A stretch of DNA of 64,000 nucleotides. It comes from Eledone cirrhosa (Eukaryota). This document shows positions 35,022 through 44,236 of the stretch, piece by piece (positions within the stretch are counted from its first letter, which is position 1; each line of letters opens with the position of its first letter). The DNA lies in contig OZ024750.1 in NCBI GenBank assembly GCA_964016885.1, positions 46,004,001 to 46,068,000 of the forward strand, written 5' to 3'. Both the position numbers and the translations under genes were made by a program. A model generated the notes under the pieces. It saw only the letters and a list, made by a program, of their open reading frames with translations, was not told the DNA's origin and made no database searches.

Positions 35022-35082
<61 letters not shown>

Positions 35083-35093
35083 AAAAAAATTCG

Positions 35094-35522
35094 AATTGGA
35101 GCTCTGAAATAGGAATATATATATGGATGTATATATAATGTATTTTGCAATACACTTTATGCTTAATTAAAAGCATTTTGAAGACCGTAAGCTATTGTTT
35201 TAAAGTAGTGACAAATTCACTTACTTTGATCTCAGCAAACAGGGGAGATAAGCCGACAAGTCTTGTTTCGATTTGGTTGAAGCTTATCAAGGCCAACTAC
35301 CCCTCCTGTCTACCGAGATCATTGATGTTATATTCTTATAGAAATCTAGTAAATAATCAGGAGCTGATTATGCAGAGCGGTTGTTGGTCAGGCAGAAATT
35401 AAAAATTAGAATTGGAGCTCTGAAATAGCAATATATATATGGATGTATATATAATGTATTTTGCAATACACTTTATGCTTAATTAAAAGCATTTTGAAGA
35501 CCGTAAGCTATTGTTTTAAAGT
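35094..35522 (-). repeat. ~113-bp direct repeats (35094-35206, 35410-35522) around an HHR; partial tandem terminal repeat
   Basis: AATTGGAGCTCTGAAATAG...TATTGTTTTAAAGT occurs twice, 316 bp apart. Confidence 0.85.
35251..35294 (-). ncRNA. Hammerhead motif, U3-A8 core variant
   Basis: Minus: GGCC-TTGATAA-GCTTCAACCAAATC-GAAA-CAAGACTTG-TC-GGCT. Confidence 0.6.
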
Positions 35523-35568
35523 TACAATAAAATAGCTCTAGGAAAGAGATTTTTCCGAGCCATATGTT

Positions 35569-36005
35569 ATAATTGAATATAAAAGAAAGATAAACACACA
35601 TATATACATATATGTGTTCAAATCATAAGGGACCAGATTCGCTAAGGTGAAAAAAAATACTAACTATGGACAATAGGGTTTGTCAGACTCAATTTAAGAA
35701 TAAATCAAGGAAATAAATACAAACTGGAATCGTGGTAACTACCAATCACCCAGACAGCGTTTGGCTATACTGTTTCGCAAATTAATTGTGAAGTGGAATA
35801 CCGATTCTTGCTCGTCAGTGGGTGAAGAATTAGTATCCTGGTCACTTCTAAGTAAATTAAAAACTGAATAGTGTGCGTATATATAATAACGCACATGGTT
35901 CCGGAACTTAGCGTGTCTCACAAACTCACACCACTAAAATGTGGTCCCTTACGATTTGAACACATTGTATATATCTGTGTTTCTCTTTCTTTTATATTCA
36001 ATTAT
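35569..36005. mobile_element. Element with ~65-bp imperfect terminal inverted arms enclosing a complete HHR
   Basis: ATAATTGAATATAAAAGAAAGA..TAAGGGACCA / TGGTCCCTTA..TCTTTCTTTTATATTCAATTAT. Confidence 0.75.
35746..35825 (-). ncRNA. Complete type I hammerhead ribozyme
   Basis: Minus strand: TCACCCA-CTGACGA-GCAAG...TTTGC-GAAA-CAGT(10 nt)GCTG-TC-TGGGTGA. Perfect 7-bp stem I, intact core, stem III and a GUC cleavage triplet. Confidence 0.88.
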
Positions 36006-36026
36006 ATATATATATATATTGGCACA

Positions 36027-36370
36027 TGGAGGCACATGGCTTAGTGGTTAGAGCATTGGCCTTGCAATCGAAAGGTTGTGAGTTAAATTCTCAGACCGGG
36101 TCATGTGTTGTTTCCTTGAGCAAGACAGTTTATTCACATTACTCCAGTTTACTCAGCTTTAGAAATGAGATGATAGGGACTGGGGTCCATATCATTCCAT
36201 TGCAACGCGGTCGTGGAGGTGCCGCGTCCCAAAACACCCAGCACTCACTGTAAATGAGGTTGGTGTCAGGAAGGGCATTCAGCTGTAGAAATCAAGCCAG
36301 AATCATTTCCTGTCCCACCCTTGCAAGCAGGGAAAAGTGGACGTAAAATGAAATGATGATGAAATGATGA
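36027..36370 (+). mobile_element. tRNA-derived SINE with a family B-like head and a different tail
   Basis: TGGCTTAGTGG head; tail GTCAGGAAGGGCATTCAGC...(ATG)n. Confidence 0.7.

Positions 36371-42515: not shown

Positions 42516-44236
<1,721 letters not shown>

Follow-up and report, generated by a model that had tools for sequence, protein, structure and literature searches.

The closest described systems are the metazoan non-LTR retrozymes of coral, mussel and axolotl (Cervera and de la Pena 2020, PMC7229834). According to the available text of that study, each has a unit that is low in GC, does not code for protein and contains a single canonical type I hammerhead, the copies are tandem or permuted and have no LTR, and Penelope-like elements (PLEs) carrying minimal hammerheads coexist with them; a canonical type I hammerhead in such a repeat is the known retrozyme case and no exception. 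A preprint treats vertebrate retrozymes as non-autonomous PLE derivatives (bioRxiv 10.64898/2026.07.22.740005); in its available text they are dispersed monomers with rarer dimers and multimers, and one of nine dimers tested cleaved in vitro. PLE insertions are described as 5' truncated and partly tandem, with a second copy inverted beside the first and a tail at only one of the ends (PMC8557442, PMC3846280). As far as the available text of PMC11167929 goes, the tail is defined in vitro by two RT start sites, both target strands are cut and extended, and the choice of start site did not differ between the strands.

Here we analyse a hammerhead in a window of 64,000 nt from Eledone cirrhosa (GCA_964016885.1, OZ024750.1, positions 46,004,001 to 46,068,000) and the repeat family to which it belongs, which we call family A. 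Family A shares with the metazoan retrozymes all of the features listed above, but its unit of 516 bp exceeds their reported genomic repeats of 150-450 bp, and its copies are mostly 1-1.5 units in inverted pairs whereas the metazoan retrozymes form long arrays (PMC7229834, available text). The available descriptions of EN+ Penelope-like elements (PMC8557442, PMC3846280, PMC11167929) match it in 5' truncation, partial tandems, the adjacent inverted copy, the one-end tail, (TA)n targets and two fixed RT start sites; unlike them, it has no ORF, its tail is 85 nt rather than 30-40 nt, its hammerhead is canonical rather than minimal, and the rule of one tail per pair is counted. We found no published description of family A in the hammerhead and retrozyme literature on octopus, cephalopods and molluscs, a search outside which the supplement of PMC7229834 might list it, and the available text of PMC13282606 does not mention a ribozyme. 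Judged from its sequence, family A is likely to be a non-LTR retrozyme with Penelope-type insertion, of a kind already known but as a family apparently not described.

Results

The minus strand of the window reads as a complete type I hammerhead at 35746-35825, with a predicted cut between 35753 and 35752. Stem I (35825-35819 with 35752-35746) is paired at 7/7 positions, the core CUGACGA occupies 35818-35812, stem II (GCAA/UUGC, 35811-35808 with 35780-35777) encloses a 27-nt insert, GAAA lies at 35776-35773, and stem III (35773-35769 with 35758-35754) consists of 5 bp, one of them U-G, closed by a 10-nt loop; the GUC site places C17 at 35753. The window copy has all three stems (7, 4-5 and 5 bp, with stem I open) and satisfies the core consensus (C3 U4 G5 A6 N7 G8 A9 / G12 A13 A14, A15.1-U16.1 and H17). 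A strict descriptor (stem I at least 6, stems II and III at least 4) finds this one site in the window and no site in 200 windows resampled in 1-kb blocks. The sequence-only reading had proposed a complete canonical hammerhead with a genuine stem III, and both parts are borne out, stem III being kept across subfamilies. No Rfam family reaches its gathering score anywhere in the window and the Rfam hammerhead models match nothing up to E=5 between 35500 and 36350, which is likely due to the long domain II insert. We conclude that the motif is real, and that it is likely a ribozyme of the ordinary mobile-element type (a retrozyme) and not part of a MITE or a host regulator. Elsewhere in the window there are minimal PLE-type hammerheads with a palindromic AT-rich stem III at 26969(-)/27047(+), 38713(-)/38835(+) and 56894(-), two of these sets being perfect inverted pairs.

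The assembly searched for further copies comprises 3.0 Gb. With the inner 306 bp as query there were 2686 first-look candidates, of which the 40 scored gave full-length matches at 91-94%; exact matches to two 20-mers taken from the ribozyme number 196 and 633, against 0 for control 20-mers, so that family A has at least 633 copies by exact 20-mer count. Arms were mapped at 181 loci (335 arms, after removal of 13 duplicate places), which were picked by similarity or exact motif and are not a random sample. The unit that emerges from the mapping is circularly permuted and measures about 516-519 bp; it is short and non-coding, has one type I hammerhead and no LTR, and contains no RT + GIY-YIG ORF, its longest stop-free frame being 70 codons. 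More than one unit is present in 75 of the 335 arms; five arms span two hammerheads (one of these is poorly mapped, at 76%), and a single arm of 1260 nt at L092 has three hammerhead sites. Long tandem arrays were not seen at the mapped loci, the longest stretch being about 2.4 units. One arm, at L194:1539-2027, contains four tandem repeats of unit 387-479, a piece of 93 bp. L091, with two hammerheads 2.7 kb apart, was considered as an ORF-bearing copy, but the pair arose by local duplication and contains no coding frame.

In the window, the long arm of family A lies at 35522..35939 on the minus strand and shows about 94% identity to the family. It is 5' truncated and runs from unit 141 to 516 and then from 1 to 41, where its 85-nt tail is cut. 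The inverted short arm (35938..36012, plus strand, unit ~440-516) has its 3' end in a (TA)n tract at 35995..36020, the likely insertion target. The inverted arms of about 65 bp that had been described at this locus are there, as a 72-nt match at 90% identity between 35568-35639 and 35938-36006, but they do not bound the element, which extends beyond the left arm to 35522; the short arm and the matching stretch of the long arm together make false terminal inverted repeats, the two arms being family A copies joined at their truncated 5' ends. With a single hammerhead, no sequence of unit 42-140 and a divergence of about 6%, the window copy is probably a dead insertion. Directly after the (TA)n, at 36037-36094 on the plus strand, there is a tRNA-like head (25.9 bits, under the Rfam cut-off), probably that of a tRNA-derived SINE.

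Across the family, the 5' starts of the arms are scattered along the unit and the 3' ends cluster at two sites: of the 335 arms, 123 end at unit 80-87 and 122 at 500-516/1-2. Both sites are TA-rich (unit 85 and 516) and they lie 85 nt apart. An inverted pair with the 5' ends joined and the 3' ends outward, which we term tail-out, occurs at 121/181 loci, the reverse orientation at one, and 60/181 have no adjacent tail-out pair; the shorter arm measures 31-763 nt (median 116). There are 122 pairs, 73 of which can be classed at both ends, and 72 of the 73 combine one tail end with one non-tail end (P=1.6e-20). A further 21 loci gave 13 pairs in which all seven classable ones follow the same rule, which brings the combined count to 79/80. 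Ends enter TA repeats in 198 of 258 classed cases, against 409 of 3620 random positions, and since the arm ends lie in (TA)n a target-site duplication cannot be read. All of the traits of Penelope-type insertion are present (5' truncation, partial tandem, adjacent inverted copy, one-end tail and microsatellite target), and the insertion pattern of family A is the Penelope-like 'tail' signature. The pairing rule suggests that the two strands use different start sites within one event.

At 35522 the tail of family A is replaced by a second repeat of unrelated sequence, family B (35085..35522, minus strand, 1.4 units of 316 bp), which has a (TA)n tract at its outer end (35023..35082). Its motif is hammerhead-like, with a U3-A8 core (35290-35284 in the window, where C17 is at 35255) and a stem III of 4 bp, and the window copy has a mismatch in stem II; the U3-A8 variant is known to be active, according to the available text of PMC3088659. 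Family B has 1093 candidates in the genome, and L310 is a family B array with 26 motifs. Its tail is 26 nt and the two-end rule is followed by 11/11 classable pairs among 14. A template switch joining families A and B in a single event was set aside, given that the family B copy is 99-100% identical to other copies and the family A copy only 91-94%. From the same divergence, family B probably landed after family A, cutting its tail. Of the two, family B is the better candidate for a retrozyme active at present. With its U3-A8 core it would escape searches restricted to CUGANGA.

Among 188 stretches that span the hammerhead, 95 pass an intact test and 57 a strict one, the window copy among them; the requirement set for stem II leaves subfamilies with only 2 bp there undercounted. 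No core column has a variant above 15% (0/11, compared with 53/516 over all columns). This conservation is in part a product of the sampling, many of the loci having been selected by exact motifs that lie within the ribozyme or next to it. An alignment was made of 60 of the 151 collected stretches. One pair of stem III in it is G-C in 27, A-U in 26 and G-U in 3 of the 60, and the loop varies in length. The four pairs of stem II are held in 56/60, 58/60, 38/60 and 30/59, such that only 2 bp are conserved family-wide.

A further helix of 14-16 bp, helix P, joins the sequence directly upstream of stem I to the first part of domain II, and its loop contains little beyond the 5' strand of stem I, the core and the G-C pair that stem II conserves. 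In the window copy its 5' strand (35825..35838, minus strand) is immediately 5' of stem I and its 3' strand (35795..35809) pairs with 35838-35825 at 13 of 14 positions. Between 81% and 94% of cells are paired in its segments. Compensation is seen at two pairs (in 18 and 7 cells), and several other changes affect one side only; a rival fold without the knot reaches much the same overall pairing (93.3% versus 92.7%). In a tree of 97 arms the compensatory changes fall mostly on one subfamily split and hence amount to approximately one event each. Folding of a 122-nt region of the window copy, with pseudoknots and tertiary contacts left out of the calculation, gives -29.0 kcal/mol without the ribozyme and -20.9 kcal/mol with the ribozyme forced. 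The active form is thus disfavoured by about 8 kcal/mol in such pseudoknot-free folding, which prefers helix P or a core-blocking rod. Its predicted ensemble share has a median of 5e-4 over 58 copies, and RNAalifold on 60 copies returns an inactive rod, not a hammerhead. Cleavage as a monomer, which had been expected for this locus, is plausible, and helix P may be either a pseudoknot or an off-switch. Pseudoknots between stems I and II and stems II of 2 bp are known hammerhead features (PMC3088659, available text), but the examples given there have 4-6 bp (Perreault 2011) against the 14-16 bp of helix P, which may instead be an inhibitory fold. The layout also differs from the solved pseudoknotted hammerhead, whose pseudoknot replaces helix II as far as the available text of PMC11300833 describes it. 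For most animal retrozyme circles the available text of PMC7229834 predicts unhindered folding, whereas the prediction for the hammerhead of family A, known here from DNA, is that the extra helix blocks it or ties it into a pseudoknot.

The predicted cut site was compared with the arm starts by gapped alignment. The 20 nt directly 3' of the cut served as anchor for 100 arms, 99 of which could be aligned. Upstream, 93/99 read through the site by at least 19 nt. The start coincides with the site in two arms (0.21 expected, P=0.019) and falls within 8 nt of it in six (1.86 expected), an excess that is small and weak, as another 9-nt window holds seven starts to the six here. Among 126 companion arms, an independent set with 13 at risk, 3/13 start at unit 327-328, the cut site. 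The read-through would be in keeping with templates that are circular or have not been cut; occasional cut linear templates would fit the small excess of starts. Two single cases are also recorded: an arm junction at the predicted cut site in L015 (a reverse-strand arm ending at unit 327-328), and a 15-nt internal deletion ending there in L114 (at ~2047). Ends of this kind would be expected if a template jump or a ligation took place where RNA had been cut. Contigs from three runs of one sample, of unrecorded kind, show no pile-up of ends and carry no weight on transcription or cleavage.

Intact RT + GIY-YIG frames are present in the genome, in many elements. No autonomous element sharing the family A unit was found in 30 GIY-YIG loci, 3 long-frame loci and 32 loci of a young 830-aa element, and these 65 PLE loci, a sample from many thousands, showed no pLTR homologous to the unit. 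The 830-aa element (L308 and L309) is very young and has a period of ~6.2 kb and an 830-codon frame. It has no Pfam match and no hammerhead by descriptor in two full units, and its similarity to family A is limited to 41 nt of AT-rich sequence, with none to family B. Its truncated copy in the window is the longest frame there (42519-44135, minus strand), which, judged by its motifs, is a truncated RT + GIY-YIG element; at least 150 identical nuclease domains of this element occur in the genome. The autonomous RT + GIY-YIG elements at L094, L095 and L045 have ends with minimal hammerhead-like motifs of U3-A8 core, which CUGANGA descriptors miss. At L033, L051 and L058, sequences with 72-85% identity to the 3' region of family A lie near GIY-YIG frames and were considered as parts of those elements; they are in (TA)n beyond the element ends and are read as separate, older insertions. 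The adjoining elements at these three loci belong to one PLE family.

Discussion

We regard it as probable that the window copy is a 5'-truncated member of a non-coding hammerhead repeat family of ~516 bp, which is likely to be a non-LTR retrozyme and to have reached its (TA)n sites through copying by the RT and GIY-YIG nuclease of a Penelope-like element. The retrozyme reading draws on the arms that carry 2-3 hammerheads in tandem; the helper is inferred because no sampled autonomous element shares the unit. In our model, tandem source copies would be transcribed, the hammerhead would cut the transcripts to monomers and these would be ligated into circles. The helper enzyme would nick both target strands, and with one strand primed at each of the two sites the product would be an inverted pair resembling a MITE. 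Helix P could clamp stems I and II as a pseudoknot or keep the ribozyme off in the circle.

The same inverted, tailed and (TA)n-targeted anatomy would be expected if the family A unit were the pseudo-LTR (pLTR) of an autonomous Penelope-like element, with the loci as short 5'-truncated insertions and no separate retrozyme cycle, and animal retrozymes have been reported as pLTR-derived (10.64898/2026.07.22.740005, available text). However, upstream of the unit start the arms run into the unit's own end and not into an ORF, the arms that exceed one unit include some with 2-3 hammerheads, and the sampled autonomous elements carry minimal hammerheads of other sequence or none that was detected. 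We suggest that the pLTR explanation is unlikely. A non-autonomous DNA transposon (a MITE) that had captured a hammerhead is what the window copy appears to be when its 90% inverted arms and TA flanks are viewed singly, and the locus had been called MITE-looking. The arm mapping contradicts this: arm length and position vary by locus, no fixed terminal inverted repeats common to the copies were found at the 181 loci, 60 of these loci have no adjacent tail-out pair, and the unit is permuted and tandem while the element continues past its left arm. We therefore give the MITE almost no credence.

The sequence-only reading also raised the possibility that the hammerhead cuts a host pre-mRNA from within an intron. 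The window copy is indeed among the copies that pass the strict test, but many others pass it too and intactness is not special; the predicted fold, moreover, disfavours the ribozyme. A Pfam scan of 150 of the 178 stop-free stretches in the window gave no convincing host exon, so cutting of a host pre-mRNA finds no support there, and two zinc-finger-like stretches resemble each other and are repeat-like. An intron larger than the 64-kb window may surround the hammerhead. Co-option of this copy by the host is, in our judgement, very improbable.

The single locus matters little, being one among hundreds to thousands of decayed copies, and the family shows how hammerhead retroelements come to be classed as MITEs. 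The vertebrate study proposes the same partnership between retrozymes and PLEs, and in its available text the evidence is co-occurrence and pLTR homology; for family A the evidence is the insertion signature, which links retrozymes to the Penelope-like machinery by mechanism where the published links, as far as their available text goes, rest on co-occurrence and homology. More speculatively, and with rather less than even confidence, we propose that two unrelated retrozyme families under a strict two-site rule (79/80 and 11/11) would be direct genomic evidence of a dimeric Penelope-like enzyme that mobilises hammerhead circles in trans, its halves using different start sites, and that the hammerhead of family A would be gated by the 14-16-bp covarying helix as a pseudoknot or as an on/off switch between linear and circular forms. 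The main value of family A lies in the pairing rule, in helix P and in its young neighbour, family B, and the family offers a test case for how the circle of an animal retrozyme escapes self-cutting, a question left by PMC7229834 in its available text.
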